Below, in pieces: positions 11,036 through 28,481 of a DNA stretch of 58,589 bases. Under the pieces are notes generated by a model that worked only from the letters and a program-made list of their open reading frames with translations, was not told the origin of the DNA and did not search any database. Each line of letters begins with the position of its first letter. Positions within the stretch are counted from its first letter, which is position 1. The position numbers were made by a program, and so were the translations under genes. The DNA is from Thermovirgaceae bacterium. GTDB lineage: Bacteria > Synergistota > Synergistia > Synergistales > Thermovirgaceae. The stretch lies in assembly GCA_040767805.1 (NCBI GenBank), contig JAXGNU010000009.1:1-58589 (forward strand), read 5' to 3'.

Positions 11036-11827
11036 TCATCCCTCCTTCCGCGGTGCGGGCCTGGTCCGTTGTTCCATCTCCCAGAGGCGGTAACTGCTTC
11101 CGTCGACATGAACGACGTGGCAATGGTGTAAAAGCCTGTCCAGGATAGCGGTAGTGAGGACTTCGTCTCCTGCAAGCATCTCCGGCCAATCCCGTATGCT
11201 CTTGTTCGACGTGATGATCGTGCTCGCCCTTTCGTACCTGGCGCTTACCACCTTGAAGAGCAGGTGGGCGTCGCCCCGGTCCAGGACCTGAAACCCCAGC
11301 TCGTCTATCACGAGAACACCCGAGGAGAGGTATTTCCTCCTCCTGTTTCGCCTGGAAGGGTTCTCCTCGTCCCGCCTGAGGCGAAAAAGCAGGTCGTCGG
11401 CAGTCAGCCAGGAGACGGAGAAGCCATTCTGGACGGCCCGCACCCCTAACGCCGCGGCGAGGTGGCTCTTGCCCACTCCGGGCGGGCCGAGGAGGAGGAT
11501 GTTCTCCTTCCTCTTGGCGTATTCGCAGGTCGAAAGCAGCTCGATCTCCTTTTTGTTCACGCTCCGACCAAAGGTGAAGTCGAAGCTTTCAAGGGTCTTG
11601 CCCTGGGGCAGGCCGGACAGCTTCAGCGAGGTCCTTATCCTGCGCTCTTCCCGGTATTCATGTTCTCTTCTCAAAACCTTTTCCAGAAAGTCACCGTAGG
11701 AGGCGTTGTCCTTTACGGCCTGTTCCATGAGCTCCGCCACGAGGTGCTGGGCATGCTCAAAGCCCATCTCTTCCAGCAAAGACCTGCTCGCGTCCAGACC
11801 GGTCACTGCCTCTTGAAGCCTGGTCAT
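11036..11827 (-). CDS. istB: IS21 helper AAA+ ATPase
   Basis: GPPGVGKSHLA Walker A, LVIDELGF Walker B, ITSNKS, AILDRLLHH. Confidence 0.96.
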   Translation of the reverse strand: MTRLQEAVTGLDASRSLLEEMGFEHAQHLVAELMEQAVKDNASYGDFLEKVLRREHEYREERRIRTSLKLSGLPQGKTLESFDFTFGRSVNKKEIELLSTCEYAKRKENILLLGPPGVGKSHLAAALGVRAVQNGFSVSWLTADDLLFRLRRDEENPSRRNRRRKYLSSGVLVIDELGFQVLDRGDAHLLFKVVSARYERASTIITSNKSIRDWPEMLAGDEVLTTAILDRLLHHCHVVHVDGSSYRLWEMEQRTRPAPRKEG

Positions 11828-13110
11828 GACCGTGTACCCACAGCTTCCGCGTAGCGATCTATGGAACGCCTGGGGGCATCTTCTATCTCCCAGCTTCTGG
11901 GTATTACGATCTCCCTGCCAATTTTCCCAAGAGGAACAGGGGTCTTTCCCGTGCCTTCGCTGGCCCCTTCGTAGTGGCCCTGGTCAATGAGAAGCCTGCA
12001 GTCCGTTTTGCGCGGGAAGGTGCAGAGCAGTTTCCCCTCTCCCCATATCTCGACGGTGTCCGTACACCCCCTGACCTGGACTGTCCGTTTAGTCCAAGTG
12101 TAGGGGACGCTGTAACGTCTTCCCTCGAAGGAGACAAGGCAATCCCGGCCAACTTCCCTCGAGACCTGTACATCGAAGGGTACAGGAAGAAAAAATGGAA
12201 GGGGCTTTAGATGCTGCTTTTCAAGGTTCCAGCTGTCGTAGATGCTTTTGCCCGTTACTGGGCATAGTAACTTCCGTGATCTGGCAAGGATCCGGAGGGT
12301 GCTGGTCTCCTGCAGGTCCTCCATATCCTCGAACCGGTCCTTCTCCGTAATCTGGAGCGTCTTCACATCCTGGACCCTACGTTCCGCCTTGCCCTTGTCC
12401 CTGGGTGTCCTGACCCTGTGGGGGTCTATGGCGAAATCCATCTGCTTCGCGTAGGAGGCGTACCCTTCGTTGAGCTTCGCCCAGGCTCCGCAGCCGCAGG
12501 CTACTCCCGTTTTGAGGTTGTCGATCCTGACCGTGGACGGGACACCTCCCAGGAATTCGAAGGCCCTGTTGTGGCAGGTAAGCCAGGTGAGCATGTTTTC
12601 GCTCCGGCTCCAGACGACGGACCACATCCGGGAGTGGGACAGGGTCATTATGAATGCCGAGATCTTTGTCTCTCCGCCAAGTTCGTGGATATAGATCTTC
12701 TTTTGAAGCCAGTCGGCCTGAGCTTGCGCCCCCGGCTTGGTCTCCACCCGGCGGAAGGGGGCAGGGAAAGGGGCCTTGCGCCTCCTTTTGACGAACCTGT
12801 AGACACTCATATAGCTCCCCGTGTATCCGTGGTCCGCGCAGAGTCTCTCATACAATGCCTGAACGGATTCCGGCCGCTCCTGCCCTTCCTGCTCCTGTAT
12901 CCACTCGAGGACAAGGGGTCGGAAGGGAGCGCACGCTTCCTCCTGGAGCGATCTGCCATCCACGGCTCCTGTCCGATGCCGTTCGAGCCTGTATCTCAAG
13001 GTGCTTTCGTCCACGCAAAAGGTGGACGCTATATCCCTGATGCTTTTGTGGTTTGCTAGTTCTTCCGCGCACATGATGTGATGCTCCTTTAGCTTCGCCA
13101 CGGTTGGCAC
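11824..13110 (-). CDS. istA: IS21 DDE transposase
   Basis: N-terminal HTH; RVETKPGAQAQADW, FLGGVPSTVRIDNLKT, PRDKGKAER, FEGRRYSVP; ATGA overlap with istB. Confidence 0.95.
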   Translation of the reverse strand: MPTVAKLKEHHIMCAEELANHKSIRDIASTFCVDESTLRYRLERHRTGAVDGRSLQEEACAPFRPLVLEWIQEQEGQERPESVQALYERLCADHGYTGSYMSVYRFVKRRRKAPFPAPFRRVETKPGAQAQADWLQKKIYIHELGGETKISAFIMTLSHSRMWSVVWSRSENMLTWLTCHNRAFEFLGGVPSTVRIDNLKTGVACGCGAWAKLNEGYASYAKQMDFAIDPHRVRTPRDKGKAERRVQDVKTLQITEKDRFEDMEDLQETSTLRILARSRKLLCPVTGKSIYDSWNLEKQHLKPLPFFLPVPFDVQVSREVGRDCLVSFEGRRYSVPYTWTKRTVQVRGCTDTVEIWGEGKLLCTFPRKTDCRLLIDQGHYEGASEGTGKTPVPLGKIGREIVIPRSWEIEDAPRRSIDRYAEAVGTRS

Positions 13111-14597: not shown

Positions 14598-15569
14598 CTA
14601 TCGGGCGAACACGCCAACGCTTTGTAGCATCTCGACCGAGGACTTGAACACTTCATCGACCTTGATAGTCCTCATAGGCTCGTTGCCGCCATTCCTCCCG
14701 GCCGCCACACAACTATGCCTGGTACCCCAGGGACCGAAACGAGCTAGGTTCTTCGGCAGGTAGAGGCCTACCACCGGCGTGCCCACGGCGCAGGCCAAGT
14801 GAAGGGGCCCGGTGTCGTTGGACACGAAAAGGACCGATCTCTCAATAAGCGCCCCAAGGGTCGTGACGTGACGGTCCCCTGAAAAGTTACCGCACCTTTC
14901 TTCGCCTATCGCTTCGCATATCTTTGCGGCAGCTTCCCGCTCCGCCCCGTAGTATCCCGTCACGCCGAGATTAATACAAAAGGAGTCGACCACACGAAGG
15001 CCCAGTTCGATGAAGTTTTCCAGGGGCCAGGTCTTGTATTTCCCGGGGGTTCCGGGGTTGAGGAGTACCCAGGGCCTGTCCTTCCACCTCGAGGCCATCA
15101 ACCGGCAGGCCTCTTCCCTTGACTGTGGCGGAATGAAAAACCGGAGTCTCCGGCCATAGACGGGCACCCCCAGGGTTGTCATGCACCAGATGTTTCTCTC
15201 CACCTCGTGCATTTTTTGGGGGAGGAAGAGTTCCCTTAATCCCCAGAAAGGGCGATAACGGGCGCCGGAAAAGAGAGGCATCGCCGAAGAGCGCAAGTCT
15301 ACCAGGAGATCATGGGGGTATGACCTGATCGTTCCGACCGATGCCAGGCGCCCTCTCAAACCCTTTTCACGACGGTATTCCTCGACCTTGTCCCAAAGGG
15401 GGTCTCTCTCAAGGACCGGAAGTGCCACGGGCCCGGCAAGAATTGTGAAGTGCGCGTCGGGAAGGAAACGCCTGAGGTTCCAGAGGGCGGCGGTGGAAAG
15501 GATCATGTCCCCCATGCATGAAAGGCCGATGACAAGAACGCGCTCAATCTTTTCGGGGTCTAACTTCAG
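14598..15569 (-). CDS. family 9 glycosyltransferase (ADP-heptose:LPS heptosyltransferase, WaaC/WaaF-like)
   Basis: RVLVIGLSCMGDMILST, LLNPGTPGKYKTWP, FVSNDTGPLHLACAVGTPVVGLY; probable CTG start at 15569 behind GAGGGAGG. Confidence 0.88.
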   Translation of the reverse strand: MKLDPEKIERVLVIGLSCMGDMILSTAALWNLRRFLPDAHFTILAGPVALPVLERDPLWDKVEEYRREKGLRGRLASVGTIRSYPHDLLVDLRSSAMPLFSGARYRPFWGLRELFLPQKMHEVERNIWCMTTLGVPVYGRRLRFFIPPQSREEACRLMASRWKDRPWVLLNPGTPGKYKTWPLENFIELGLRVVDSFCINLGVTGYYGAEREAAAKICEAIGEERCGNFSGDRHVTTLGALIERSVLFVSNDTGPLHLACAVGTPVVGLYLPKNLARFGPWGTRHSCVAAGRNGGNEPMRTIKVDEVFKSSVEMLQSVGVFAR

Positions 15570-15702
15570 CCCGTTCCCTCCCTCTCTTTCCCGTACACCC
15601 GGGGTAAACCGACCCAAAACGGGGGAGCAACCGGGACCCATCACCACGATGAGCCTGCAGACCGGCAGAGGCCTAGGAGCGCCATGGGTTTTCCCGTAGA
15701 TT

Positions 15703-17202
15703 CTACTTTTCGCCGCCTCCGGCGGGGAATTTTCTCGCCCGTTCCCATATTTTGGAAGAACTAAGGCCTTCCAGCAGCGGGACCAGGACCACCTTGCCGC
15801 CCCAGGAGGCGACCTCGCGGGCTCCAGCGATCTCTTCCTCACGGTAGTCCCCGCCCTTGACGAGAACGTCAGGCCTCAGGACATTGATGAGGGGCAAGGG
15901 CGTCTTTTCCTCGAATACCACCACCATGTCCACCGCTGCCAGTGACGACAGCACTTTGGCCCGGAGTTCCTGGGGATTGAGAGGCCGGCCCGGCCCCTTG
16001 TTCATCTTGACCGACCGATCGGAGTTCAACCCGACCACAAGCCTGTCGCCCTGCTCTTTAGCTTTCTCCAGGCAATGGACATGACCAGCGTGGAGGATAT
16101 CGAAGCAGCCGTTGGTGAAAACGATCCTGTTCCCTTGTTTTTTCCATTCTTCCGTGATTAGAGCCGCATCCTCAGCATCCTTGACCTTCCCGGAGGAACC
16201 CGGAGGCTGAACTCTCATGATAATGTCCAGCAGTTCTCCCCTGCTTGCAGCGTAGATCCCGACCTTTCCCACGACGTACCCGGCTGCCAGGTTGGCCATC
16301 CTGGCAGAGTCCCTCAGGGAGGCCCTCGCCGAGATGAAGGCGGAAAGGACCGCCACAACCGTGTCGCCCGCTCCGGTCACATCAAAAATCTCAAGGGCCC
16401 TGGCGGGTTCGTGGAAGGTGGCGTCCGCCGAGAGGAGTGAAAGGCCTTTTTCAGACCTCGTCACGACGATGGAGCCAAGGCTGAATCGGTCCATCAGCTC
16501 CCGGGCCGCCAGTTCGATGTCGTCGTCGGCGTTCGGGACCTCCCTCCCCCGGGCTGCACCCAGCTCCTTGAGGTTCGGGGTCACCAGGGAAGCTCCCCTG
16601 TACTTTTCCCATTCCGCCCCCTTGGGGTCGACGATGAGGGGTATCCCCCTGTCCACGCACTCCCGGATGACGCCCTGGCATACCCCGAAGGTGCAGACTC
16701 CCTTCCCGTAGTCCGAAAGGACGACCCCATTGAAACCGTCGAGAAAAGGGCCGGTCACCCGTTTCAACAGTCTTTCCTCTTCCCCGGGTGAAAGGGGCGT
16801 CTCGTCCTCGAAATCGAGCCTCAGCATCTGCTGCCTCGAGGAAAGGATCCTCACCTTCTTCGTGGTGGACCTCTCCGCTGAGGGGATCAGCCTGCCGCCT
16901 ATTCCTTTCGAAGCCACCAGGTCCGCGAGGACCGCTCCTTCTTCATCGTCGCCGACGACAGCGGCCAACTCGACCGGGCAACCCAGGCAGACGAGGTTAT
17001 GAGCGACGTTGCAAGCTCCCCCCAAACCGAAGCTCGATGAACGGACCTTGACCACTGGGATGGGCGCTTCGGGCGAAATCCTTCCCGTTGAACCCTCGTA
17101 GGTCTGGTCCAGGATGGGGTCCCCGACCACGAGCACCCTTGAGCCGCCGAAACCTTTTCTGAGAAGATCGAGGGCGGCCTCCTGTACTACCATCTCATCC
17201 AC
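15703..17202 (-). CDS. hldE: bifunctional heptose 7-phosphate kinase / heptose 1-phosphate adenylyltransferase
   Basis: VLVVGDPILD..RISPEAPIPVV, DVTGAGDTV (PfkB) plus VFTNGCFDILHAGHV..GLNSDRSV..VKGGDY. Confidence 0.96.
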   Translation of the reverse strand: MDEMVVQEAALDLLRKGFGGSRVLVVGDPILDQTYEGSTGRISPEAPIPVVKVRSSSFGLGGACNVAHNLVCLGCPVELAAVVGDDEEGAVLADLVASKGIGGRLIPSAERSTTKKVRILSSRQQMLRLDFEDETPLSPGEEERLLKRVTGPFLDGFNGVVLSDYGKGVCTFGVCQGVIRECVDRGIPLIVDPKGAEWEKYRGASLVTPNLKELGAARGREVPNADDDIELAARELMDRFSLGSIVVTRSEKGLSLLSADATFHEPARALEIFDVTGAGDTVVAVLSAFISARASLRDSARMANLAAGYVVGKVGIYAASRGELLDIIMRVQPPGSSGKVKDAEDAALITEEWKKQGNRIVFTNGCFDILHAGHVHCLEKAKEQGDRLVVGLNSDRSVKMNKGPGRPLNPQELRAKVLSSLAAVDMVVVFEEKTPLPLINVLRPDVLVKGGDYREEEIAGAREVASWGGKVVLVPLLEGLSSSKIWERARKFPAGGGEK

Positions 17203-18172
17203 CCTCCCCGAAAAGGTAACCGCCGTTCCTTTCCAGAAGAGCCACGTACCTCTCTACCGCTTCCTCCAGGGGGGTAAAACCCGCCACGAAGCCTGCCGAT
17301 CTCAACCTGGAGAGGTCGGCTTTGGTGTAACCCTGGTATTTTCCTTTCATTTCTTCCGGAAAGGGGATGTATTCCACCCTGCCCTTCCCGACCGATCTTA
17401 TAACGGAGTCGGCCAGGTCCTGGAAGGACCTGGACTTGCCGGTCCCGCAGTTGAAAATACCGGACTTCTCAGGGTGTTCCAGGAAGAAGAGGTTCACCTT
17501 GACGGCGTCCTCCACGGCGAGGAAATCCCTTCGCTGTTCCCCGGGGCCGTAACCGCCGGAACCCTCGAAGAGCCTTATCGTTCCGTCGGCGATGATGCTG
17601 TTGTAGGCATGGAAAACCATCGAGGCCATTTTCCCCTTGTGGGCCTCCTGGGGGCCGAAGACGTTGAAATACCTCAACCCCACGACCTGGGACCCTGCCG
17701 TCGGGAGTTTATGCCTCACGTAGTTGTCAAAAAGGAGCTTTGAAAAAGCGTACAGGTTCAGTGGGAACTCACAGCCGGGTTCCTCCCGGAAACCGTTCCC
17801 GCCCGACCCGTAAACCGACGCGGAGGAAGCGTAGATGAAGGGGAAGCCTTCGGCTACGGCGAGATCGAGGAGTTCACGGGAGTACCGGTAATTATTGTCC
17901 AGCATGTAGTCCCCGTCGGTATTCAGGGTGTCAGAACAAGCCCCCTGGTGGAAAAGGGCCCTGATCCTTTTTCCTTTAAAAGCTCCTCGCCTGACCAGTT
18001 CCCTAAAGTCGTCCCTGTCGATAAAGTCCGAAAACCCTAGTCCCCTGAGATTTTTATACTTTTCCGACCTGCCCACGTGGTCCACCACGAGGATGTCGTC
18101 GATGCCCTTCCCGTTCAGCCCGGCGACGAGGTTGCTGCCGATAAACCCCGCGCCGCCGGTCACGATGATCAA
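17195..18172 (-). CDS. hldD: ADP-L-glycero-D-manno-heptose 6-epimerase
   Basis: [61 protein letters not shown]. Confidence 0.96.
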   Translation of the reverse strand: MIIVTGGAGFIGSNLVAGLNGKGIDDILVVDHVGRSEKYKNLRGLGFSDFIDRDDFRELVRRGAFKGKRIRALFHQGACSDTLNTDGDYMLDNNYRYSRELLDLAVAEGFPFIYASSASVYGSGGNGFREEPGCEFPLNLYAFSKLLFDNYVRHKLPTAGSQVVGLRYFNVFGPQEAHKGKMASMVFHAYNSIIADGTIRLFEGSGGYGPGEQRRDFLAVEDAVKVNLFFLEHPEKSGIFNCGTGKSRSFQDLADSVIRSVGKGRVEYIPFPEEMKGKYQGYTKADLSRLRSAGFVAGFTPLEEAVERYVALLERNGGYLFGEGG

Positions 18173-18786
18173 GAAGGATCACCCCCCGCCGGGCCGGGGT
18201 CGCCGCCGAATATCATCTCTTCGACCAGGGCGCAAAGCACGTGTTCGACGGCCAGATGCACATTCTGAATGACCGACGTGTTTTTTGAATCGACCTCGAT
18301 CGCCACATCGGCGTGCCGCCCGATCGCTCCTCCCCTGCATGTCAGTGCGATCGTACCTATCCTGAGGGTTTTTGACACCCTGACGGCCCTTTTGACGTTC
18401 TCCGAATCCCCGCTGGTGCTGATGCCCATCAGCACATCGCCCGGCCGTCCAAGGGCCTGTACCTGCCGGAGGAACACGTTCTCGAAGCAGTAATCGTTGC
18501 AGAAGGCCGTAAGGAACGACGTATCCGTAGTGAGGGCGATGGCGGGCAGGGCCGGCCTCTCTCTTTGTTTTGAGAGGCGGCATACGAACTCGGCGGCCAT
18601 GTGCTGGCAATCGGCGGCGCTCCCCCCGTTGCCGCAGAGCATCAGTTTACCACCCGACCTCATGGAACCGGCGATCAGGACGGCCGCGCGGTAGATTGAC
18701 CCGCCCTCCTGGTCCGGCAACGCGGCCAGTATCCCCGCGGTCTCAAGGAGCGGGGAGGATATCATTTTTTTGATGCGATCATCCAT
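18169..18786 (-). CDS. gmhA: sedoheptulose 7-phosphate isomerase
   Basis: CGNGGSAADCQHMAAE, LPAIALTTDTS, ISTSGDSENV, IQNVHLAVEH; start reassigned to ATG 18786. Confidence 0.95.
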   Translation of the reverse strand: MDDRIKKMISSPLLETAGILAALPDQEGGSIYRAAVLIAGSMRSGGKLMLCGNGGSAADCQHMAAEFVCRLSKQRERPALPAIALTTDTSFLTAFCNDYCFENVFLRQVQALGRPGDVLMGISTSGDSENVKRAVRVSKTLRIGTIALTCRGGAIGRHADVAIEVDSKNTSVIQNVHLAVEHVLCALVEEMIFGGDPGPAGGDPS

Positions 18787-19351
18787 CCCGGGTCCCACCT
18801 TCTCCCCCTTCGACCCATAGGCGGATAACTTCAGCGGCGGCCTTGACGTCATCCACCACGGCGTCCCAGAGGGGGCCCCCTTCCTCTTCGGCCTTTCGGC
18901 CGCAACCCGTCCTGACGAGGACCCCCTTCGCGCCGATCGCCCTGGCCAGCTCCATGTCCGAACTCTTGTCGCCCACGACAAAGGACTTCAGCAGGTCGAT
19001 GCCCAGGTCCCTGGAAGCCCTAAAGGCCAGGCCGGGTTTCGGTTTCCGGCAATCGCACCCTTCCCAAGGCGCGTGGGGGCAATGATACACCCCATCGAGG
19101 CTCGCCCCGCCTTCTCCCAAAAGCAGGGCCATTCTCTCCGTCACCCTGGAATAGTCTTCTTCGAGGAACAGCCCTCTTCCGATCCCCGACTGGTTCGTGA
19201 GGACGACGACCTTCAGCCCCATCGAGGTCATCCTTCCAATTGCTTCCGGGGCTCCATCGATGAGGACCACGTCCTCCGGATCGGAGATAAACCCTTTATC
19301 CTCGATTATCACGCCGTCCCGGTCCAGGAAGACGGCTCTTGAGTACTTCAT
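18779..19351 (-). CDS. gmhB: D-glycero-D-manno-heptose 1,7-bisphosphate phosphatase
   Basis: AVFLDRDGVI, TNQSGIGRG, CPH...CDCRKPKPG, VGDKSSD. Confidence 0.95.
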   Translation of the reverse strand: MKYSRAVFLDRDGVIIEDKGFISDPEDVVLIDGAPEAIGRMTSMGLKVVVLTNQSGIGRGLFLEEDYSRVTERMALLLGEGGASLDGVYHCPHAPWEGCDCRKPKPGLAFRASRDLGIDLLKSFVVGDKSSDMELARAIGAKGVLVRTGCGRKAEEEGGPLWDAVVDDVKAAAEVIRLWVEGGEGGTRDG

Positions 19352-19383: not shown

Positions 19384-19426
19384 GCCGAATGACACCCTTC
19401 AACACCCCAGGGCCCGGCGCACCCTT
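19384..19426. repeat. direct repeat copy 1 (last kdsB codons, stop and 15 downstream nt)
   Basis: GCCGAATGACACCCTTCAACACCCCAGGGCCCGGCGCACCCTT; matches 14553-14595. Confidence 0.95.
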
Positions 19427-20124
19427 TCCAGGTCCTCCGGCGTGTCCACGCTGGGGCCGGACTCCCCGCGGGTCACGGCCACCTTCATATTGTAGCCGTG
19501 TTCGAGGACCCTGAGCTGTTCCAGGGATTCAACTTCGGAGAGGGGCGTCGGGGCCAGGTCCGCGTAGGTGAAGAGAAAATCCCGCCGAAAACCGTAGATG
19601 CCGATGTGTTGGAAGAGGGGGATATCCATCCGCGCCCGAAGGTAGGGTATGGGCGACCGGCTGAAGTAAAGGGCGTAACCCCGCAGGTCGGTCACCACCT
19701 TCACCGTGTTGGGGTCCGAAAGGGAGCCGGGATCGGTGATGGGGGCGCAGAGCGTCGATGACAGGGCTTCATCGTCCTCCCGGAGCACCCCCGCGGCCTC
19801 GTCGATCATGACGGGGTCGAGGAGGGGCTCATCCCCCTGGATGTTGATCACTATCGCCGCGTCGTAATGGTTCGACGCCTCCGCCACGCGGCAGGTACCG
19901 TTGGGGTGGCCGGGGGAGGTCATCAGGCATTCGCCCCCGAAGGCGCGGACGGTTTCAAAGATGCGCTCGTCGTCGGTGGCCACGACCAGCCGGTCCAGGG
20001 TCCTGGAAAGGGCCGCCCGTTCATGGACCCTCTGGATGAGGGTCTTGCCGCAGATATCGGCCAGGGGCTTGCCCGGGAGCCTGGTGGAGGCATAGCGGGC
20101 CGGGATCACGCCGAGGACTTTCAT
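19399..20124 (-). CDS. kdsB: 3-deoxy-manno-octulosonate cytidylyltransferase (CMP-Kdo synthetase)
   Basis: VIPARYASTRLPGKPL, INIQGDEP, ALYFSRSPIP, HIGIYGF, ESLEQLRVLEHG, SVDTPEDL. Confidence 0.97.
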   Translation of the reverse strand: MKVLGVIPARYASTRLPGKPLADICGKTLIQRVHERAALSRTLDRLVVATDDERIFETVRAFGGECLMTSPGHPNGTCRVAEASNHYDAAIVINIQGDEPLLDPVMIDEAAGVLREDDEALSSTLCAPITDPGSLSDPNTVKVVTDLRGYALYFSRSPIPYLRARMDIPLFQHIGIYGFRRDFLFTYADLAPTPLSEVESLEQLRVLEHGYNMKVAVTRGESGPSVDTPEDLERVRRALGC

Positions 20125-21332
20125 GACGGGACCCCGTGCCGCCTCGCCCAGGCCAGGGCCTCATTCCTGTCGACGGGCTCTATTTCATTGACTATCCACT
20201 CCCTCATGGCCTCGCCCTCGGGGGTGTGCTGGGCGTAGCTCATGAAGTCCAGGGGGATCCCCAGGGCCTTTGAGGCTCTCCAGGCCATGACGGGCCAGAC
20301 CTCGCCGATGTCCCCGATGATGGGGATGCTCCCCTCGTGGCGGGCGAAGGCGGACATCTCCATCCGGAAGGGGATCCTGGAGATCTTCGTCTTGGGGAGG
20401 CCCCTGTCGATGGCCTCCTGGATGAGGGATGAGCCCGTCTCGAGGTCCCTGGCCCTGCGAAGGTTTTCGTCCAGGTCAATCCGGATGAGGGTCTTGCCCT
20501 TGAGGGAAAAGGTCCGCAGCCCCTTCCACCACGACCAGATACCGTGCCCCGTGTAGCACTCGAAGGGGCCGTCGTGGATCTCCTGGGTGAGGGCTACCGC
20601 CGATTCTATGATGACATCGGCGGACTCGAGCATCATGGCGACGCGCATGGACCGCTCGAAAAGGGAGATGCTGTCGCCGACGGCCATGCCCACGTGGCCG
20701 CTACCCACCATCTGGGGGATGCTCACCAGCACGGGAAGGCCCTTCTCCGCCCCCTTGCCTATCATGGTGCGCCGGTCGGCCCCCCACCCGGCCACGATCT
20801 CGAAGGGCAGGCCGTAAGCCTTGCAGATTACCAGCAGCTCGCCGGCCAGGTTCTCCGTCCTCAACCCCATGGGGTAGGCCATGTTGCCGGCGGCCTTGAT
20901 GACGAACCGACCGTCGGCCTTCTCCCCTTTTTCGAGGAGGTCCTCGTCGAGGACCATCTCCTTTCGGAGCGTGTCCAACTGCTCTCGGGAAAGCCGGGTG
21001 AACTCGAAGACGCCGCTTCGGGGCATGAAAGCGGGGTCGAAGCCCAGGTCGGCGGCGCTGCACATCTTGACCCTGTCGAGGGCTCCTGCCATTTCGTGCC
21101 CCACCACGGCGGAACTGGTGGTGACGCCGTCCACCAGGCCCTTGTCCATGAGTTCCGCGATGAGGGTGGTCACCCCTTCGTGGATGTTGGGACCGCTCCC
21201 GGTGGCCACCACGATTTTGCCACCGGCCATCTTGGCGGCCACTACTTTTTCCACGGCTTCATCGAGGCTCGCCCGGGAGCGTTCGTCCAGGTTTTCGTAA
21301 AACCGGTCCAGCAACTCCTCCTGCACTTTCAT
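20121..21332 (-). CDS. hypothetical protein, deoxyhypusine-synthase-like (DHS/NAD-binding) fold suspected
   Basis: 403 aa from ATG 21332; ATGA overlaps with both waaA and kdsB; KIVVATGSGPNIHEGVTTLIAELMDKGLVDGVTTSSAVVGHE resembles the DHS N-terminal nucleotide-binding segment; IIGDIGEVWP resembles its C-terminal segment. Confidence 0.6.
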   Translation of the reverse strand: MKVQEELLDRFYENLDERSRASLDEAVEKVVAAKMAGGKIVVATGSGPNIHEGVTTLIAELMDKGLVDGVTTSSAVVGHEMAGALDRVKMCSAADLGFDPAFMPRSGVFEFTRLSREQLDTLRKEMVLDEDLLEKGEKADGRFVIKAAGNMAYPMGLRTENLAGELLVICKAYGLPFEIVAGWGADRRTMIGKGAEKGLPVLVSIPQMVGSGHVGMAVGDSISLFERSMRVAMMLESADVIIESAVALTQEIHDGPFECYTGHGIWSWWKGLRTFSLKGKTLIRIDLDENLRRARDLETGSSLIQEAIDRGLPKTKISRIPFRMEMSAFARHEGSIPIIGDIGEVWPVMAWRASKALGIPLDFMSYAQHTPEGEAMREWIVNEIEPVDRNEALAWARRHGVPS

Positions 21333-22597
21333 GACCCGATCTCCTTTCGGATCGCTTCCACCGACGCTTTCGCCGCCCCCGAAGAAGCCGAGAAGAACAG
21401 CCCCGCCCCCTCCCGGGCGGCCTTCTTCGTGCCCGGTTCGAGGCATTTCAGCCAATGGGCAGCCATCTCCCCGGCGCACCGGACCACGGTGGAGACACCC
21501 CTTTCGCCGAGCCTTTCGGAGGCCTCCCGGAAATCCCGCATGAAGGGGCCGTGGGAGAGGGGTATGCCGAAAACGGCCGGTTCCATTATATTCTGTCCCC
21601 CCCTGTCCACGAGGCTCCCTCCCACGAAAGCCCCGTCCACTACCCCGTAGAGGTCGAAGAGGACCCCGATGCGGTCGGCTACGAGGACCTCCCAGGGGGT
21701 TTTTCCCGCTCCGGCCCCCTCCACCTCGGTGAGGAGTGCCGACGGCCCCGCCTTTCCGGCAATGCCCAGGACCCGGGCGCTCCTCTCGGGGTGGCGGGGA
21801 ACGATGATGAGCCGGGCCTCGTGGATCTTCGCCTTAAGCAACCTGAAGGCCTCCAGGACGACCTCTTCCTCGCCCGGGTGGGTGCTCCCGGCGAGGAAGA
21901 CCGGCCCCCCGCCGACGATGGACCTCGCCCACTTCAGGTCCGCCTCTTCTTTTCGAAGGATTATGGCGTCGATCTTGCAGTCCCCCGTGACCCGGACCTT
22001 CCGCTCTTCGAGGCCGATATCCAGGAGCAGGGCCCTGTCGGCTTCGGATCGGACCAGGAGGAGGGAGAAGGATCTGTACACCCTCCGCCAAAAGGAGAGG
22101 TGGCTCCGGATATGGCCGGCGGTCTTCTCGGAGAACCGCCCGTTGACCAGTATGGCGGGGATGCCCCTTTCGCGCAGTTCGTCCAGCATCAGGGGCCAGA
22201 TCTCCGTCTCGATCACCGCAAAGGCCCTGGGCCGGACCGTGTCGAGTGCGCGGCGGACGATCCAGGGTATATCCCAGGGGTAGTAAAGGTGCTCGTGGAA
22301 AAGCCCCCCCGCGACGCGGTAGGCCATCTCCCGCCCCGTGGTCGTGGTGGTGGAAAGGAGGATCCCCTCGGGGCCCGCGCCCTCCCGGGCGAGAATCTTT
22401 AAAAGGGGCCAGGCGGACTGCACTTCCCCCACCGAGACGGCATGGAACCACAGAGGATCTTCAGGCAGGCTGCCCTTCTTCTCCTCGCTGTAGAGGCCCC
22501 TCCTCTCCGCCAGCCCCGGGGCGTACTTTTTCGCCAGCCAGGGGAAGACGGCGCAATAGGCTGCCGAGATGAAGGAGCGGTAAAGGAGGGATGCCAG
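21329..22597 (-). CDS. waaA: Kdo transferase
   Basis: LWFHAVSVGEV, IETEIWP, AGSTHPGEEE, VPRHPER, FVGGSL..GGQNIMEPA; frame extends 55 codons above the ORF-track GTG to a CTG at 22597, giving a typical 422 aa. Confidence 0.93.
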   Translation of the reverse strand: MASLLYRSFISAAYCAVFPWLAKKYAPGLAERRGLYSEEKKGSLPEDPLWFHAVSVGEVQSAWPLLKILAREGAGPEGILLSTTTTTGREMAYRVAGGLFHEHLYYPWDIPWIVRRALDTVRPRAFAVIETEIWPLMLDELRERGIPAILVNGRFSEKTAGHIRSHLSFWRRVYRSFSLLLVRSEADRALLLDIGLEERKVRVTGDCKIDAIILRKEEADLKWARSIVGGGPVFLAGSTHPGEEEVVLEAFRLLKAKIHEARLIIVPRHPERSARVLGIAGKAGPSALLTEVEGAGAGKTPWEVLVADRIGVLFDLYGVVDGAFVGGSLVDRGGQNIMEPAVFGIPLSHGPFMRDFREASERLGERGVSTVVRCAGEMAAHWLKCLEPGTKKAAREGAGLFFSASSGAAKASVEAIRKEIGS

Positions 22598-22598
22598 G

Positions 22599-23606
22599 TC
22601 AGACCACTCCCGCCTTGAGGAGTTCGTGGATGTGGATTATTCCCGTGGCCCTCCCCTCCTCGGTGACCACCAGGCAGGATATCTCGCGCTCCTCCATGAT
22701 ATGCATCGCCTCAGCGGCCAGCCGGTCCGGAGCTATGGTCCTGGGGTCCCTCGTCATGACCTCCTCTATCGGCAGGGAGAGGGCGTCCAGGCCCCTGTCC
22801 TCGAGGAGCCGACGAAGGTCCCCGTCGGTGAAGATGCCCGAAGCCATCCCACGGTCATCCTCGATTATCGTGGCCCCGAAGCCCTTGCTCGTGATCTCGA
22901 AAAGGGCTTCCCTGACCGAGGAATCCCGTTTCACCCTGGGCACCCTTTCCCCCGTGGACATTACGTCCGAGACCCTCAGGAGCAGCCGCTTTCCCAGCGC
23001 CCCCCCGGGGTGGAAGAGGGCGAAATCCTCGGGACGGAGGCCCCGGAGTTCGGTGACCATGCCGGCCAGGGCGTCGCCAAGGGCCAATTGCAGCGTGGTG
23101 CTGGTGGTGGGGGCGAGTCCGAGGGGGTCCGCCTCTTTCGCCACGCCGGAATGGATGACCACGTCGGAGTCCCTGGCGAGCCTGGAGGAGGTGTCGCCCG
23201 TCATGGCTATGATCGGGGCGCCGAGCCTCCTGAAAAAGGGGAGCACCTCGAGGACCTCCCTCGTCTGGCCGCTGTTGCTGAGGAAAAGACCGGCGTCCTC
23301 CCGGCAGACCATCCCCAGGTCGCCGTGGGCCCCTTCGGCGGCGTGGAGGAAGAAGGCCGGCGTGCCCAGCGATGCCAGCGTGGCGGCGATCTTGCGTCCG
23401 ACCAGGCCGGACTTGCCCATCCCCACGACCACGAGCCTCCCCTCGCACCGGCTTATGATCCTTGCCGCCTCCACCAGTTCCTGCCCCACCCTGGCGACGG
23501 CTCGGAGGATCTCCTCGGCCTCCATCCTCAGGACCCGGCGGCCGACCTCGAGCAGCCTCTCATCGTCGAGATCCTTGTTGTCCCGTTCCCTCGGCAGGCT
23601 GACCAC
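22599..23606 (-). CDS. kdsD: arabinose 5-phosphate isomerase (KpsF/GutQ; SIS + CBS)
   Basis: GMGKSGLVGRKIAATLASLGTPAFFLH, HGDLG, APTTSTT, FHPGGALG, GIFTDGDLRR. Confidence 0.95.
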   Translation of the reverse strand: MVSLPRERDNKDLDDERLLEVGRRVLRMEAEEILRAVARVGQELVEAARIISRCEGRLVVVGMGKSGLVGRKIAATLASLGTPAFFLHAAEGAHGDLGMVCREDAGLFLSNSGQTREVLEVLPFFRRLGAPIIAMTGDTSSRLARDSDVVIHSGVAKEADPLGLAPTTSTTLQLALGDALAGMVTELRGLRPEDFALFHPGGALGKRLLLRVSDVMSTGERVPRVKRDSSVREALFEITSKGFGATIIEDDRGMASGIFTDGDLRRLLEDRGLDALSLPIEEVMTRDPRTIAPDRLAAEAMHIMEEREISCLVVTEEGRATGIIHIHELLKAGVV

Positions 23607-23609
23607 CGG

Positions 23610-24443
23610 TCACTTCCCCCCTTCCGCGACGCCGGCGGCGCGGTGTATCGCCAGGACCCTCTGCAGCAGGTTCTCGAGCGAGTCGAGGGAGACCATGTTG
23701 GGGCCGTCGCTCTTGGCCGAGTCCGGGTCGGGGTGGGTCTCGAGGAAAAGGGCGTCGATCCCCGCGGCGGCGGCGGCCCGGGCCAGGACAGGGACGAACC
23801 GCCTGTCCCCCCCGCTGGATGTCCCCTGCGCCCCGGGCATCTGCACACTGTGGGTGGCGTCGAACATTACGGGGTAGCCCAGGGACCTCATGATGGCCAG
23901 GGAGCGCATGTCGACCACCAGCTGGCCGTACCCGAAGGTGCTCCCCCTCTCGCAGAGGATGACCTTGTCGTTGCCCGCCTCGAGGCACTTGGAGACGGCC
24001 TGCCCCATGTCCACGGGGGCTAGGAACTGCCCCTTCTTGATATTCACTACCTTGCCCGTGGCCGCGGCAGCGACGACGAGGTCGGTCTGTCTGCAGAGGA
24101 AGGCCGGTATCTGAATAATGTCCACCACCTCGGCCGCCCTTTCGGCCTGCCCCGGGAGGTGGATGTCGGTGAGGACGGGACAGCCGACGGAGCCCTTCAC
24201 CTCGGCGAGCCACTCGAGGCCTTTATCGAGGCCCGGCCCCCTGAAGCTGTGGATGGAGGTCCTGTTGGCCTTGTCGAAGGAGGCCTTGAAGACGTAGGGG
24301 ATGCCGAGTTTTCCGCATATACCCGAGACCTCCCGCGCGATGAGGAGGGCCGACTCGAGGTCCTCGAGGACGCAGGGACCCGCCACGAGGGCCAGCCTCC
24401 CGTCGCCGAAGGTGACCCCTCCGGCGGAAAAGATCTTCGTCAT
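23610..24443 (-). CDS. kdsA: Kdo 8-phosphate synthase
   Basis: [46 protein letters not shown]. Confidence 0.97.
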
Positions 24444-26725
24444 GACCTGTCACCTCCATGCACTTCGGGTTCACGGCCCGACCTTTCGAGGTACTTTTCA
24501 ACGTGGGCGCCGAAGACACGGCACACTTCCTGCCTCTTACGCCACCCCAGGGTCTGGGAAGCGTATTCGATGACCGCCTCCACGGCGCCGCCCGTGCCCA
24601 TCCTCTGCCTTCCCGCGCTGGACATGCTCTCGCGGCGGCCGGGGTCCCTGAGGATGGCCAGCGCTTCACCGGCGAGGGAGGCCGCGTCGGCCGGGACGAG
24701 CGATTCCGCCCCGCCCAGGAGTTTCTTTTGCACCCTTTTGCCCTTCTCGTCGATGGAGACCACGGGGACCCCCAAACCGGCGCAGATCTGGTTCGCCGTC
24801 CCGCCCAGGCCTATAAGGACCTCCGCGCCGAGGGCAGCTTCCGACAGGTCGCCGAAAAAAAGCCCCACCTGGAGAGAACCGTCCCGGGTCCGGATCACGT
24901 CACCGGGTGCCCGCTCCCAGGAGGGGGCCTTTTCAAGGAGCCTGCCGGGGTCCAGCGTGGGCGCCACGACCATCGCGAAACGGAGTTCCTCCTCTTCAGC
25001 CATCAGGAGGGCCGCGTCGAGCAGGAGCGCCAGGTCTTCGTAGGCCCTCTCCCGGCTCCCCGGGAGAAGCAGGACGCGCTTGCCCCCTCCCTCACTAGCC
25101 CTGTCAATAGTATCACCGGCGAGGTCCATTATCGGGTTTCCCCTGTAGACGGCGTCGGCGCCGCGGTCGGCCAACTCCCGGGCCGTCTCCGGGTCCCTGG
25201 TGAACACCCTTCTGCAGCGCATCTTCAAAAGTCGTTTTTCCAAGCCCCAGTGGCCGTGGAGGCGGACGGACTTGGCTGTGGCCATGAGCACCGGCATCGT
25301 TCCCTGCCCCCATAGGGTGTGAAGGAAAAGGTAGACGTCCCCGACGCAGAGGACGGTCCTCAACCGCCCCCTGAGGCCGCTCCAGGCCTCGGCCTGGGCC
25401 CCGATATGCCGGAAGAGGCCCGACCGGATGTCGCGGATGAGGTCCCTCAGGCGGTACTTGACCACGCCGCCGCTGGGCGTCTCGCTGGGCGGCGAGAGCA
25501 CGCGGATCCCCCTGGAGCGGTACTCCTGGCCCCTCCCCACGAGAGGGAAGCCCGATACCTCGAAAAGGGGGTACCTCTCCTGGAGTTTCTCGGCGAGCAG
25601 GCTCCCGATGGCATCCTCCCCGTGGCCGTTGGAGGAGACGACGACCCTTGGCCTGAGGCGCCCGGAAAGGTCGGAAAAGAAGGTACCCTCATCGCTGAGG
25701 ACGGCGTGGACCCGGGGAATGTAAAGGGGAACGGCGGGCGACCAGTCCGGGGGGAAGTTGAAGATATCCTTCTCGGTGCAGATCAGGGACCGGGCCCCCA
25801 GGGAGGTCATCCTTTCACCAAGGGCCGCCAATTCTGACTCCGTGAATATGTGATGGTCCCGAAAGGTCTCGTGGAACAGGGTCGGAAACCCCAGCCCCTC
25901 GAGAAAGGAACCGAAACTGGCGGGGTTGCCGATGGCCGAAAAAGCCGCGGCGGGGAGTTCCGGCGGCCCGCTTTCCTCCAGGGCGACCCCGGGGCCCCGA
26001 AAGCGCGACCACCCCGCCAGGGCCAGGGAGGAGAGGAACGGGTCCTCGCCGGTGACAGCCTTAATGGCGGCCGATATTTCCTCCACGCTGACCTCGGGGG
26101 CCTGGTCGGCCTTGGTGATCACCACCATGTGGGCCCTCCCTAGCGACGCCGGTCTCTCCCTGAGCATCCCGGCCGGCATAAGCCGGCCGTTGCCGAAGGG
26201 GCAGGTGGCGTCGATGAGGACCACGTTCACGTCCCGGCCCATCTTCCTGTGCTGGAAGCCGTCGTCGGCTATGGCTATATCCACGCCCTCTTCGGCCAGG
26301 CGCAGGACCCCCCCGGCCCGGTCCGCCGACACGGCTATGGGCACACCCCTGAGCCTTCCGGCAAGGAGAAGGGCCTCATCGCCCAGGAGGTCCCTGCTAG
26401 GTTCGCACTCCCCGGCCAGGAGGCACTCCGTCCCCTTCCTGCCGTAGCCGCGCATGACTATGCCCGGCCGGAGCCCGGCCCGGACGAATTTCCGGGCGAG
26501 CATTTCAACGAAGGGCGTCTTGTTGGTGCCTCCGTGGGTGATGTTGCCGACGCTCACCACGGGGATGGGCATCTCCCGGGAAGCTGACAGGCCGTGATCG
26601 TAGGAGAAGTTCCTGGCCGAAGAAAGGGCGCCGGTGAGCCACCCCAGCGGGGCGAGAAGCGCCCAGGGGGGCCCCTCCTTTTCGCCACGGATGTGCCTGA
26701 AGTAGCTATTCAGCAGCGCTCCCAT
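24440..26725 (-). CDS. lpxK: tetraacyldisaccharide 4'-kinase fused to a C-terminal lipid-A-disaccharide-synthase-related (SNGHGED) domain
   Basis: N-half [32 protein letters not shown] (LpxK); from ~25655 downward [14 protein letters not shown]...VGDVY...GNPIMD...LLPGSR...GLGGTANQ (GT-B, TIGR03492-like). Confidence 0.9.
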
Positions 26726-28481
26726 GGTTTTCCCCGAACTGGAGGCAGCAAAGCCTGGCGTAGAGTCCCCCGGAACGCTTCAGCTCCTCGTGGGTGCCCT
26801 CCTCGACGATCCTCCCCCGGTCTACGACCAAGATGCGGTCGGCCTCCCTGACGGTGGCGAGCCTGTGAGCGATCACGATCGAAGTCCTGCCCGACGCGGC
26901 TTTCTTCATGGCCTCCTGGATCTCCTGCTCCACGGCGGCGTCGAGGGAGGAAGTGGCCTCGTCCATGATGAGTATCCTGGGGTTCCTGACGATGGCCCTG
27001 GCGATAGCGACCCTCTGGCGCTGGCCGCCGCTGAGGGTGACGCCCCGCTCACCCACCTCGGTGTTGAAACCCCCCGGCAGCGACAGGACGAAATCGTGAA
27101 TCCCCGCCACCCTGGCCGCCTCCTCGATGTCAACCTCGGAAAGGTCCTCGCACCCGTAGGCGATGTTGAAGGCGATGCTGCCCTTCAAAAGGACGGGGTC
27201 CTGGGGGACGACGCCGACTTTCCTCCTCAGCCCCTTGAGGTCGAGCTTCCTTATGTCCTTCCCGTCGATGAGGACGGCGCCTTCCTGGGGGTCGTAGAAA
27301 CGGGTGATGAGGTCGGCGATGGTCGATTTGCCCGCCCCGGTGGGCCCCACGATGGCGACCCTTTCGCCGGGGAGGACCCGGAAGGTAACGTCTGCCAGGA
27401 CCCAGGCGCCCTCGTTGTAGGCGAAGGAGACACCCTCGAAGGCGACCTCCCCCCGGATATCATCGACCCTTTCGGGGTGCTTGGGGGGCTTGACCTCGCT
27501 CTCCACATCGAGGATCTCGAAGACCCTGTCGGCGGCGGCCAACCCCTGCTGCACCTGGGCCACCACCCTCGAGAAGACCCGGACGGGCTGGACGAGCAGG
27601 GCCAGGTAGCCAAGGAAGGCGATGAGTTCGCCCGGCGATAGTTCACCGGCGACCACCAGCCTCCCGCCGAACCACAGGATCACCGCCAACGCCGTTATGA
27701 GGATGACCTCCACTATCCCCGTCAGGGCGGCGTTGGTCTGCACCCCCCTCATCAGGGCCCTGAAGTGGGCGTTGCTCTGCGATTCGAAGCGGCCGTATTC
27801 CTGCTCCTCGGTGGCGAAGAGGCGTACTATCCGTATCGCCGAAAGGGCCTCGGCAGCGATGGCCGAAAGCCCGGCCAACTGCTGCTGGACGTCGTGCCCG
27901 ACGACCCTGAGCCGCCTGGAGGCCGCGTCCAGCACAAGGGCGGCCAGAGGAAGGACGAGGAAGGACAGGAGGGAGAGCTTCCAGTTTATGTAGAGCAGGA
28001 AGGCGATCATCCCTGCGAAACTGATCCCCTGGACGACGATATCGATGAACACCGTGGTTATCATCCCCTGCAGGATGGTGACGTCGTTCGTTATCCTGGA
28101 GAGCATCTCGCCGATCCGTTTGCCGTAAAGGTAACGGAAGGACATCCTCTGCATGTGGTCGTAGAGCTGGAGCCTCAAGTCGACCACCACCCGCTGCCCC
28201 ACCCAGTTCATCAGGTACTGCTGGCCGTAGAAGAAGATGCTTTTCGCGAAGTAAAGGAGCACCAGCCCCACGGCGACGAGGTTCAGCATGACCATGTCCC
28301 TGCTTATGAGCACATCGTCCACGATGTTCCTGAGGAGCCAGGGGGCCGCGACCGCGCAGGCCGAGGAGAGCACCATGCAGGCGAGGGCGCCCAGTATGCG
28401 ATGGACGTAGGGCCTCGCGTAGGCCAGGAGCCTTGGGTAAGCCCGTTTTCCTGTCTCTTGCCTTTTCTTCAAAGTTCTCAT
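26706..28481 (-). CDS. msbA: lipid A ABC exporter, MsbA-like
   Basis: 6-TM domain + GPTGAGKST, LSGGQRQR, DEATSSLD; embedded in lpx cluster. Confidence 0.88.
   Translation of the reverse strand: MRTLKKRQETGKRAYPRLLAYARPYVHRILGALACMVLSSACAVAAPWLLRNIVDDVLISRDMVMLNLVAVGLVLLYFAKSIFFYGQQYLMNWVGQRVVVDLRLQLYDHMQRMSFRYLYGKRIGEMLSRITNDVTILQGMITTVFIDIVVQGISFAGMIAFLLYINWKLSLLSFLVLPLAALVLDAASRRLRVVGHDVQQQLAGLSAIAAEALSAIRIVRLFATEEQEYGRFESQSNAHFRALMRGVQTNAALTGIVEVILITALAVILWFGGRLVVAGELSPGELIAFLGYLALLVQPVRVFSRVVAQVQQGLAAADRVFEILDVESEVKPPKHPERVDDIRGEVAFEGVSFAYNEGAWVLADVTFRVLPGERVAIVGPTGAGKSTIADLITRFYDPQEGAVLIDGKDIRKLDLKGLRRKVGVVPQDPVLLKGSIAFNIAYGCEDLSEVDIEEAARVAGIHDFVLSLPGGFNTEVGERGVTLSGGQRQRVAIARAIVRNPRILIMDEATSSLDAAVEQEIQEAMKKAASGRTSIVIAHRLATVREADRILVVDRGRIVEEGTHEELKRSGGLYARLCCLQFGENHGSAAE

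Follow-up and report, generated by a model that had tools for sequence, protein, structure and literature searches.

The DNA analysed here, called the window throughout, is a 58,589-nt contig of a Thermovirgaceae bacterium of the phylum Synergistota (JAXGNU010000009.1, assembly GCA_040767805.1). [quoted passage not shown] The Kdo branch of LPS synthesis (KdsD, KdsA, KdsC, KdsB and WaaA) is a drug-target pathway and is treated as complete. We describe the locus, the fold and relatives of the gene product, its association with kdsB in and outside LPS clusters, and a tentative proposal for its function.

The gene and its locus

The gene, its ribosome-binding site and the Kdo genes of the window are as follows.

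20121 to 21332, minus strand: the KdsB-partner gene, 403 aa, with a single terminal stop on translation
21341 to 21345, minus strand: a Shine-Dalgarno-like AGGAG, 8 nt before the ATG of the gene, read directly from the sequence
19399 to 20124, minus strand: kdsB, CMP-Kdo synthetase (PF02348, 1.7e-58; TIGR00466, 228.7 bits with a cut-off of 155)
21329 to 22432, minus strand: waaA, Kdo transferase (PF04413, 1.2e-43)
22599 to 23606, minus strand: kdsD-type arabinose-5-phosphate isomerase (SIS and CBS, Pfam)
23610 to 24443, minus strand: kdsA-type Kdo-8-phosphate synthase (PF00793, DAHP_synth_1, 5.8e-73)
32612 to 33097, minus strand: kdsC-like HAD phosphatase, 161 aa (PF08282, PF00702)

On the minus strand the order, as assigned by Pfam and NCBIfam, begins with lpxD, lpxC, fabZ, lpxA, the kdsC-like HAD gene, lptF/G, lpxI and lpxB, and continues with a 500-aa open reading frame (ORF), msbA, an lpxK fusion, kdsA, kdsD, waaA, the KdsB-partner gene and kdsB, followed by a gmhB-like HAD gene, gmhA, hldD, hldE and a GT9 gene. 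An earlier reading made from the sequence only (the sequence-only reading) had held that the textbook Kdo enzymes are complete in the window without the gene, and the assignments of kdsD, kdsA, the kdsC-like HAD gene, kdsB and waaA by Pfam and NCBIfam bear this out. The window KdsB matches the KdsB of PDB entry 3oam at E 5.8e-64 and is of the canonical type, with one copy in the source genome (a single tblastn match).

The ORF and its coupling at both ends had likewise been read correctly. Translation of 20121-21332 on the minus strand gives 403 residues and one terminal stop, and the plus strand reads tcat at both 20121-20124 and 21329-21332: the stop of waaA shares an ATGA with the ATG of the gene, and the TGA of the gene shares an ATGA with the ATG of kdsB. 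The frame is open upstream to a GTG at 21479, which would give a protein of 452 aa; in an alignment of homologues the starts coincide with the ATG at 21332. The gene is single-copy in the 1.65-Mb, 80.6%-complete source genome. In RNA libraries of three studies there are contigs that match the gene in part, leaving other parts of the stretch uncovered, and among them error-free pieces of 184 and 343 nt bridge the junctions with kdsB and waaA, respectively, which fits co-transcription; DNA carry-over is possible in such libraries.

A conserved family with the fold of deoxyhypusine synthase

At least 3914 database proteins match the gene product at E<=0.001 (8000 candidates scored), and those listed are 69-94% identical to it. 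The source names given for the homologues are all 'hypothetical'. Since there are so many conserved homologues, the gene is not a chance ORF. Among representatives of 50%-identity clusters 174 match, mostly fragments, the farthest full-length ones being 39-41% identical, and no deoxyhypusine synthase (DHS) is found among these 174. The window protein is 60-83% identical to 78 full-length homologues, and across 79 full-length homologues from all contexts (lowest pairwise identity 56%) 104 of the 403 positions are invariant, among them a long block at 311-347 and numerous His, Glu, Asp, Lys and Arg residues. Judged from this alignment, the strong constraint on the gene product looks enzyme-like. 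The window protein fits the profile of the KdsB-partner family as a whole, namely a length of about 400 aa, more than 55% identity and a kdsB directly downstream. We conclude that the gene is real and expressed-looking, and that it encodes a soluble, cytoplasmic protein of an unnamed, highly conserved family.

Sequence models say little about this family. A Pfam scan of the gene product returned no family at E<=0.01, and the NCBIfam matches are weak and lie within residues 5-90. They are to the GSU2086 family (28.2 bits, E 1.3e-6, with a cut-off of 250), to TIGR00321 for DHS (18.4 bits with a cut-off of 304.25, residues 5-90) and to TIGR00300 for the LOR/SDH-type ornithine cyclodeaminase (OCD; 14.5 bits with a cut-off of 410.8, residues 28-84). 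The stretch that matches these three models is the N-terminal one that the sequence-only reading had pointed to as DHS-like. Searches of PDB sequences with the single protein and with a family profile gave nothing meaningful, and no publication on the family was found in a literature search, in which work on LPS or Kdo in Synergistetes and on Kdo catabolism was judged by title and abstract. The automatic cluster name in the ESM Atlas is 'putative deoxyhypusine synthase'.

The structural comparison is more informative. An AlphaFold2 model built from 23 sequences is confident (pLDDT 89.2, pTM 0.91), and Foldseek ranks DHS structures first (7cmc, E 2.7e-6), followed by AgrE/ArgZ and 3c2q. In independent VIA structural alignments against a set of representatives the closest structure is the DHS 8put (Z 16.9, root-mean-square deviation 3.8, 257 aligned residues), followed by AgrE (Z 16.6), the DHS 6dft and the LOR/SDH protein 3c2q (both Z 15.7) and human DHS (Z 15.6); sirtuins (Z 10.3-11.5) and the middle domains of thiamine diphosphate enzymes (about 9-11) are clearly below DHS and OCD. 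A sirtuin or another member of the DHS-like NAD(FAD)-binding superfamily was on this ground rejected as the closest match. The DHS-like fold that had been called by eye is thus recovered on a confident model, and the predicted fold is that of DHS and of LOR/SDH-type OCD domains.

The gene product nevertheless belongs to none of the three families, DHS, OCD and GSU2086. DHS membership was rejected on the lack of a PF01916 match at E<=0.01, on the TIGR00321 score given above, and on the absence of both the GGGxPKN motif and SWGK, the motif of the catalytic lysine. OCD membership was rejected on the TIGR00300 score, and GSU2086 membership on 28.2 bits against 250 and on an hhalign probability of 82% that covers 73 N-terminal columns only. 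With DHS (PF01916, TIGR00321; 8put, 7cmc, 1dhs and 6dft) the protein shares the fold at Z 15.6-16.9 over 248-257 aligned residues and, as judged by eye, the order of strands and a final GD.G..WP that recalls the DAT..LP block of DHS. It differs from DHS in identity (11-13%), in carrying about 60-100 extra residues, and in its genomic partner, which here is kdsB and not eIF5A or polyamine genes. With the LOR/SDH-type OCDs (the C-terminal domain of AgrE/ArgZ, 6lrf/6lrg/6juy, and 3c2q) it aligns over 217-219 residues at Z 15.7-16.6; these are redox-neutral enzymes with a tightly bound pyridine dinucleotide, and their substrate context is an amino acid, not a sugar acid.

An hhalign comparison with a DHS profile built from 11 PF01916 proteins covers residues 21-207 only. 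It pairs GSGPN of the gene product with the glycine-rich loop of DHS and TTSSAV..HE with STGAN..H-D of DHS, two N-terminal motifs that in the DHS alignment we take to be nucleotide-binding. The strand that by eye matches GGGxPKN, which is invariant in the 11 DHS sequences, reads IIESAVAL here, and no GGG occurs in the window protein or among the invariant columns of the 79 homologues. An invariant GLPKTK (K314, K316) stands at a similar place in the chain to SWGK, which is invariant in the DHS alignment; it is a by-eye candidate and lies outside the half covered by hhalign. In view of this and of the association described below, we regard the family as a new one of known fold, and its metabolic partnership likewise as new.

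The gene is paired with kdsB

We examined 80 loci, on contigs taken from one genome per species. One locus ends too early to assess kdsB; in 59 of the other 79 kdsB directly follows the gene, 56 times with a gap of at most 119 nt, twice with an overlap and once with a PhyH-family gene in between. Linkage to Kdo genes, which the sequence-only reading had drawn from the one cluster, thus extends across the homologues, and it recurs on contigs labelled with at least six phyla. waaA lies directly upstream of the gene in 41 of the 78 loci where this could be assessed. The steady partner of the gene is kdsB, and not LPS.

In a maximum-likelihood tree of 71 KdsB rows a branch supported at 100/100 separates 15 unlinked copies from Synergistota, whose branching follows taxonomy, from 56 rows that comprise all 55 linked KdsBs and the copy of a genome with the gene 18 kb away. 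The linked KdsBs keep QGDEP, HIGIY, LEQLR and a conserved His, like solved KdsBs, and the unlinked Synergistota type reads QVDDP, HIGPY and LEMLR. We considered whether the partner KdsB is a specialised, altered enzyme and rejected this, as it is the linked type that looks canonical and the unlinked Synergistota type that is divergent. That the partner has canonical motifs also argues against a grossly altered sugar.

A search for fusions among longer proteins had one outcome, an 885-aa metagenome protein from a single contig (P0271) in which a KdsB-like N-terminus is joined to a DHS-like domain (residues 156-504; identity 56%) and, at 578-862, a BNR_2 sialidase-like domain. This could be a genuine fusion or an artefact of gene calling.

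The pair occurs in genomes where no LPS genes are found

Whole-genome scans of four genomes carrying the pair detected no PF04413 (WaaA), no KdsA above its cut-off and no LpxC, the completeness of these genomes being not known. In all four the linked KdsB is the sole KdsB above the TIGR00466 cut-off. The pair is hence not bound to LPS. The neighbourhoods of such loci, labelled Atribacterota, Spirochaetota and Chloroflexota, hold tripartite ATP-independent periplasmic (TRAP) or ATP-binding cassette (ABC) importers, lyases of the dihydrodipicolinate synthase (DHDPS) family, pentose isomerases with kinases, and cytoplasmic sialidase-like proteins. An Atribacterota-labelled locus encodes LacI, TRAP DctPQM, the KdsB partner, KdsB, YhcH/DUF386, a DHDPS-family lyase, an L-fucose/D-arabinose-type (FucI-like) isomerase and an FGGY kinase. 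Loci labelled Spirochaetota have IclR, an ABC or TRAP importer, the gene and KdsB, and then a variable part with two BNR_2 sialidase-like proteins lacking signal peptides, or a cupin isomerase and an FGGY kinase, or a DHDPS lyase. Those labelled Chloroflexota read DeoR, iron-dependent alcohol dehydrogenase (Fe-ADH), zinc-dependent alcohol dehydrogenase, SIS, gene, KdsB, or else gene, PhyH dioxygenase, KdsB, DHDPS lyase, and an Acidobacteriota-labelled locus reads RraA-like aldolase, DHDPS, gene, KdsB.

Cleavage of Kdo by Kdo aldolase yields pyruvate and D-arabinose, and the latter is also accepted by fucose isomerase. From its gene content, we suggest that the Atribacterota-labelled locus could specify a pathway of Kdo import and cleavage that also activates Kdo. 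The arrangement resembles systems for scavenging sialic acid, which combine a SiaPQM or ABC importer, the lyase NanA, YhcH and a CMP-sialate synthetase: the loci without LPS genes share with them the importer, the DHDPS-family lyase, a YhcH-like protein, BNR_2 sialidase-like proteins and a CMP-sugar synthetase. Here, however, the synthetase is of the KdsB type (above the TIGR00466 cut-off), and the pentose isomerase and kinase fit cleavage of Kdo to arabinose and not the handling of N-acetylmannosamine. Sialic acid systems also include NanOx/YjhC, an NAD-dependent 2,7-anhydro-sialate oxidoreductase; the fold of the KdsB partner is DHS-like and not that of Gfo/Idh/MocA.

The loci in which kdsB is not adjacent are mostly Bacteroidota-labelled, and their genomes have a single KdsB elsewhere. 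In three of those examined the gene stands beside putative LPS-related enzymes, namely a GT90/GT2/LpxL-like acyltransferase group, a Kdo/WaaP-family kinase or a sulfatase-family protein; the neighbours in the others examined are unrelated.

Distribution and block replacement in Synergistota

The gene is present in 123 of 201 Synergistota genomes (103 of the 166 of high quality; 30 of 64 genera), all matches being at least 61% identical, and whole families in this sample have no match. kdsB was found in 190 of the 201 genomes and falls into two classes. By a hand tally, with a working cut for the canonical type of best E<=1e-70, the gene is present in 119 of 124 genomes with canonical-type KdsB, in 1 of 66 with the divergent KdsB only and in 3 of 11 in which no kdsB was found; these counts are descriptive, relatives not being independent.

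Gene-less Synergistota have the cluster lpxK-kdsB-kdsA-kdsD-waaA (five loci), with a kdsB 45-50% identical to that of the window, and gene-carrying ones have lpxK-kdsA-kdsD-waaA-gene-kdsB. The divergent kdsB that normally lies between lpxK and kdsA is missing from the gene-carrying cluster. A gene-less relative within the family of the window is 87% identical to it in kdsA, 84% in kdsD and 82% in msbA, as against 47% in waaA and 49% in kdsB, while more distant gene-carrying Synergistota are 77-80% identical in the gene and 67-73% in kdsB, as against 61-64% in kdsA and kdsD. This pattern of identities fits a lateral replacement of the waaA-gene-kdsB block. Co-variation of WaaA with the gene was considered and rejected, as WaaA identity does not separate carriers (40-61%) from non-carriers (39-47%).

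Some Synergistota with the pair have a second, divergent kdsB beside a 371-aa Fe-ADH and/or a 392-aa DegT aminotransferase, at six loci:

L127, 3625-6816
L138, 2851-5965
L130, 3618-6991
L129, 6091-7975
L126, 3130-5175
L140, 5507-7579

Fe-ADH and DegT are presumably the families of Shewanella KdnB and KdnA, and the gene content of these loci suggests synthesis of 8-amino-Kdo (Kdo8N) in Synergistota. Close homologues of this Fe-ADH or DegT (KdnB/KdnA-type) were not found in the genome of the window. The gene had earlier been described as functionally comparable to KdnA/KdnB and not homologous to them. The lack of homology stands, the presumed Kdn-type pairs adjoining the other KdsB paralogue in other Synergistota. 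The KdsB partner would resemble the Shewanella system in being an accessory enzyme that acts on Kdo beside a dedicated KdsB.

A parallel DHS-like family in the heptose pathway

The GSU2086 family (NF052581), the best sequence-model match of the gene product, is likewise an uncharacterised DHS-like protein embedded in an operon for LPS inner-core sugar nucleotides, and hhalign relates it to the DHS profile with a probability of 95%. It is shorter, at about 315 aa, and its partner is the heptose pathway and not kdsB. In Geobacter GSU2086 lies between hldE and gmhA, and its disruption lowered growth on electrodes, according to PMC5585712. gmhA is directly upstream of the GSU2086-family gene in 17 of 20 loci (L091-L110, for example L091 1483-2436).

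The GSU2086 family scores above its cut-off in 97 of 151 genomes of the phylum that holds Geobacter and a Smithella-labelled carrier of the KdsB-partner gene; it was found in none of the five genomes of that phylum that carry the KdsB-partner gene. By hand tally, 90 of 119 genomes that lack an HldD above the cut-off have a GSU2086-family gene, compared with 7 of 32 genomes with such an HldD, and the family may stand in for this NAD-dependent epimerase (ADP-heptose 6-epimerase). By analogy, a second family of DHS fold in a pathway for inner-core sugar nucleotides lends some support to the same kind of chemistry for the KdsB partner.

Proposed function and alternatives

In both DHS and OCD, transient oxidation relies on a bound pyridine dinucleotide. 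We infer a pyridine dinucleotide and redox-neutral chemistry for the KdsB partner because all of its close structural relatives are such enzymes. By this analogy it could be a cofactor-dependent, redox-neutral enzyme acting on Kdo or CMP-Kdo, a proposal that we consider plausible and still fall short of regarding as probable. It would be a cytoplasmic enzyme with a bound dinucleotide, most likely NAD(P), that shuttles a hydride in a redox-neutral conversion of free Kdo or CMP-Kdo, and this conversion would feed or edit the substrate or product of KdsB. Candidate reactions would be an isomerisation or epimerisation of Kdo or CMP-Kdo, the supply of an anomer that KdsB can use or, by analogy with NanOx/YjhC and sialic acid, a reaction by which Kdo in an anhydro or broken-down form re-enters the pool. 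Since the partner KdsB looks canonical, we favor a reaction that yields or starts from ordinary Kdo. In the window the enzyme would perform an accessory step of the LPS Kdo branch, outside the textbook steps.

The wider proposal, which we put forward tentatively, is of an unrecognised Kdo step: together with KdsB, a hydride-shuttling enzyme of DHS fold would convert an unusable form of Kdo (an anomer, an anhydro or dehydro by-product or an epimer) or edit CMP-Kdo. The two genes would form a cassette that spread between phyla, with a role in assembling LPS in Synergistota and in scavenging Kdo where LPS is lacking.

Several observations weigh against this proposal. The likeness to DHS in sequence is weak (an hhalign probability of 47% over the residues covered), and the two DHS motifs GGGxPKN and SWGK are both absent. 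Well-studied LPS producers do without the gene, and control genomes have no full-length relative. Twenty of the 79 assessable loci have no kdsB nearby; in five Synergistota genomes with canonical-type KdsB no copy of the gene was found; and one complete Synergistota genome retains just two fragments of the gene, for residues 1-108 and 323-397 (truncated gene at L143 7829-8155, G051 C1 2019828-2020365), with the adjoining linked kdsB intact and a second kdsB elsewhere in the genome. KdsBs of Bacteroidota-labelled genomes branch as sister to the linked clade, and the tree, from which canonical KdsBs of phyla without the gene were left out, cannot say whether the linked KdsB is a special subtype. 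The phylum labels and the completeness of the metagenome-assembled genomes outside Synergistota are unverified. Finally, cofactor, substrate and activity are all assigned to the gene product by analogy.

An alternative that we consider rather unlikely, and would still keep in mind, is that the protein helps KdsB without redox chemistry, either as an anomerase that supplies the right ring form or as a subunit that binds nucleotides and regulates or scaffolds but catalyses nothing itself. The Kdo that KdsB takes is the minor beta-pyranose anomer, and CMP-Kdo has a short lifetime. A helper role would agree with the tight, often overlapping pairing with kdsB in every type of context, with the patchy, accessory distribution (123 of 201 Synergistota genomes) and with the loss of the glycine motif of DHS. 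The 104 invariant positions, on the other hand, among which loop residues of the types His, Glu, Asp, Lys and Arg are frequent, look like an active site and not like a scaffold, and a helper of KdsB would not be expected to lack an adjacent kdsB in 20 of 79 loci.

The sequence-only reading had proposed an enzyme of the LPS core, one whose action on Kdo, on CMP-Kdo or on a sugar of the core, be it oxidation, epimerisation or amination, would give the Synergistota carriers a modified inner core. The ATGA overlaps by which the gene is joined to waaA on one side and to kdsB on the other, the waaA directly upstream in 41 of 78 loci, the identities that fit replacement of a waaA-gene-kdsB block (waaA 47% and kdsB 49%, against kdsA 87%, kdsD 84% and msbA 82%), and some kdsB-less loci in which the gene adjoins GT90, GT2 and an LpxL-like acyltransferase, or a Kdo/WaaP-family kinase, would all suit such a role. 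Restriction to the LPS core does not survive the wider survey: the pair is also present in the four genomes in which no LpxC, WaaA or KdsA was found, there in loci for the import and cleavage of sugar acids; the motifs of the partner KdsB are canonical; and the identity of WaaA does not separate genomes with and without the gene. We therefore consider an LPS-core-specific enzyme improbable.

A further alternative concerns the cofactor, which might be a nickel-pincer (di)nucleotide instead of NAD, as reported for LOR/SDH-type OCDs. That OCDs oxidise transiently with a bound pyridine dinucleotide is described in PMC13524815 (2026), which also refers to Desguin 2025 for a nickel-pincer adenine dinucleotide in these enzymes, and in NCBIfam TIGR00300 bears the description nickel-pincer dependent. 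OCD domains also rank near the top of the structural comparison (Z 15.7-16.6). Genomic context also brings larC close to the gene: one Synergistota family has a full-length larC behind gene-kdsB in the LPS core operon in 9 of its 14 sampled carriers, and larC follows the pair in 4 of the 80 scanned loci, one of these LarCs being just 34% identical to the others. Against this, 10 of 20 carriers from outside the Synergistota sample yielded no LarC, including all 7 labelled Bacteroidota (genome completeness not known), and LarC is present in 185 of the 201 Synergistota genomes, with or without the gene. LarA homologues in the genome of the window and in most of the larC-operon family already explain larC; LarA is above its cut-off in 12 of 14 genomes of that family, and the genome with none has OCD-like genes. 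No cysteine is invariant among the 79 homologues. The nickel-pincer cofactor reported for OCDs is thus not supported for the gene product, and we think it very unlikely.

In the larC-operon family (loci labelled Pyramidobacter and Dethiosulfovibrio) larC lies between gene-kdsB and genes for Elm1-like, GT4 and GT9 transferases, at:

L146, 8265-9509
L145, 6817-8250
L036, 8085-9326
L045, 7913-9115
L042, 4222-5232
L055, 8030-9088

The larC of the genome of the window is split, with a 258-aa N-terminal part in one gene and a PP-loop (LarE-like) domain fused to the C-terminal domain of LarC in a second, both on contig C2:

L147, 6416-7192, minus strand, and 8128-9411, plus strand

An ORF of 329-358 aa has a weak match to the same part of TIGR00300. 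It lies about 7 kb from the gene in genomes G061 and G102 and on another contig in G156, and it may be another DHS-like paralogue. The matches are at:

G061, contig C1, 204026-204214
G102, contig C94, 46540-46728
G156, contig C8, 21170-21358

A true deoxyhypusine synthase or homospermidine-type polyamine enzyme, or an unrelated enzyme incidentally near Kdo genes, can hardly be what the gene encodes: DHS is the top structural match and gives the ESM Atlas cluster its name, but PF01916 does not match at E<=0.01, TIGR00321 reaches 18.4 bits of the 304 needed, the motifs GGGxPKN and SWGK are absent and the neighbourhoods examined contain no polyamine or translation-factor genes, while an incidental position is at odds with a kdsB linkage that recurs under the labels of at least six phyla.

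Other features of the window

Two further features flank the Kdo genes.

24440 to 26725, minus strand: lpxK fusion (PF02606 on residues 22-354 of 761; the C-terminal ~400 aa have no Pfam match)
14598 to 19351, minus strand: heptose block downstream of kdsB, with a gmhB-like HAD gene, gmhA (SIS_2), hldD (epimerase), hldE (PfkB and cytidylyltransferase-like) and a GT9 heptosyltransferase (Pfam)

tblastn matches of about 2.2-2.3 kb in other Synergistota clusters suggest that the lpxK fusion is conserved. The 500-aa ORF between lpxB and msbA (28478-29980, minus strand) has no Pfam family and keeps its position between these two genes in other Synergistota lipid A clusters, at 35-53% identity. An IS21-type pair (11036-13110, minus strand), made up of a gene like rve/Mu transposases and IstB, separates the heptose block from outer-core/O-antigen genes, among them a Wzy_C ligase, GT4 and Elm1-like genes, and the G+C content drops from about 0.65 to 0.48-0.60 across the first 14 kb of the window.

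The waaA frame (21329-22636, minus strand) continues upstream of its first canonical start, the GTG at 22432, through 68 open codons. This upstream stretch encodes the conserved N-terminus of WaaA (a hydrophobic helix and HAVSVGEVQ) without an ATG, GTG or TTG, and contains a CTG at 22597, directly after the stop of kdsD. From the alignment to full-length WaaA, the true start of waaA probably lies further upstream than 22432, and the frame reflects either a non-canonical start or an assembly error.

Implications

For annotation, thousands of 'hypothetical proteins' gain a name and a context from the family described here. If the proposed function is true, a conserved enzyme linked to KdsB would add a step or a quality-control function to the Kdo branch. 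The chemistry of the DHS/OCD fold would be widened from amines to sugar acids. Carriers without LPS would make CMP-Kdo for an unknown glycoconjugate, and the gene would offer a handle on how anaerobes without LPS use Kdo from other bacteria or from plant pectin.

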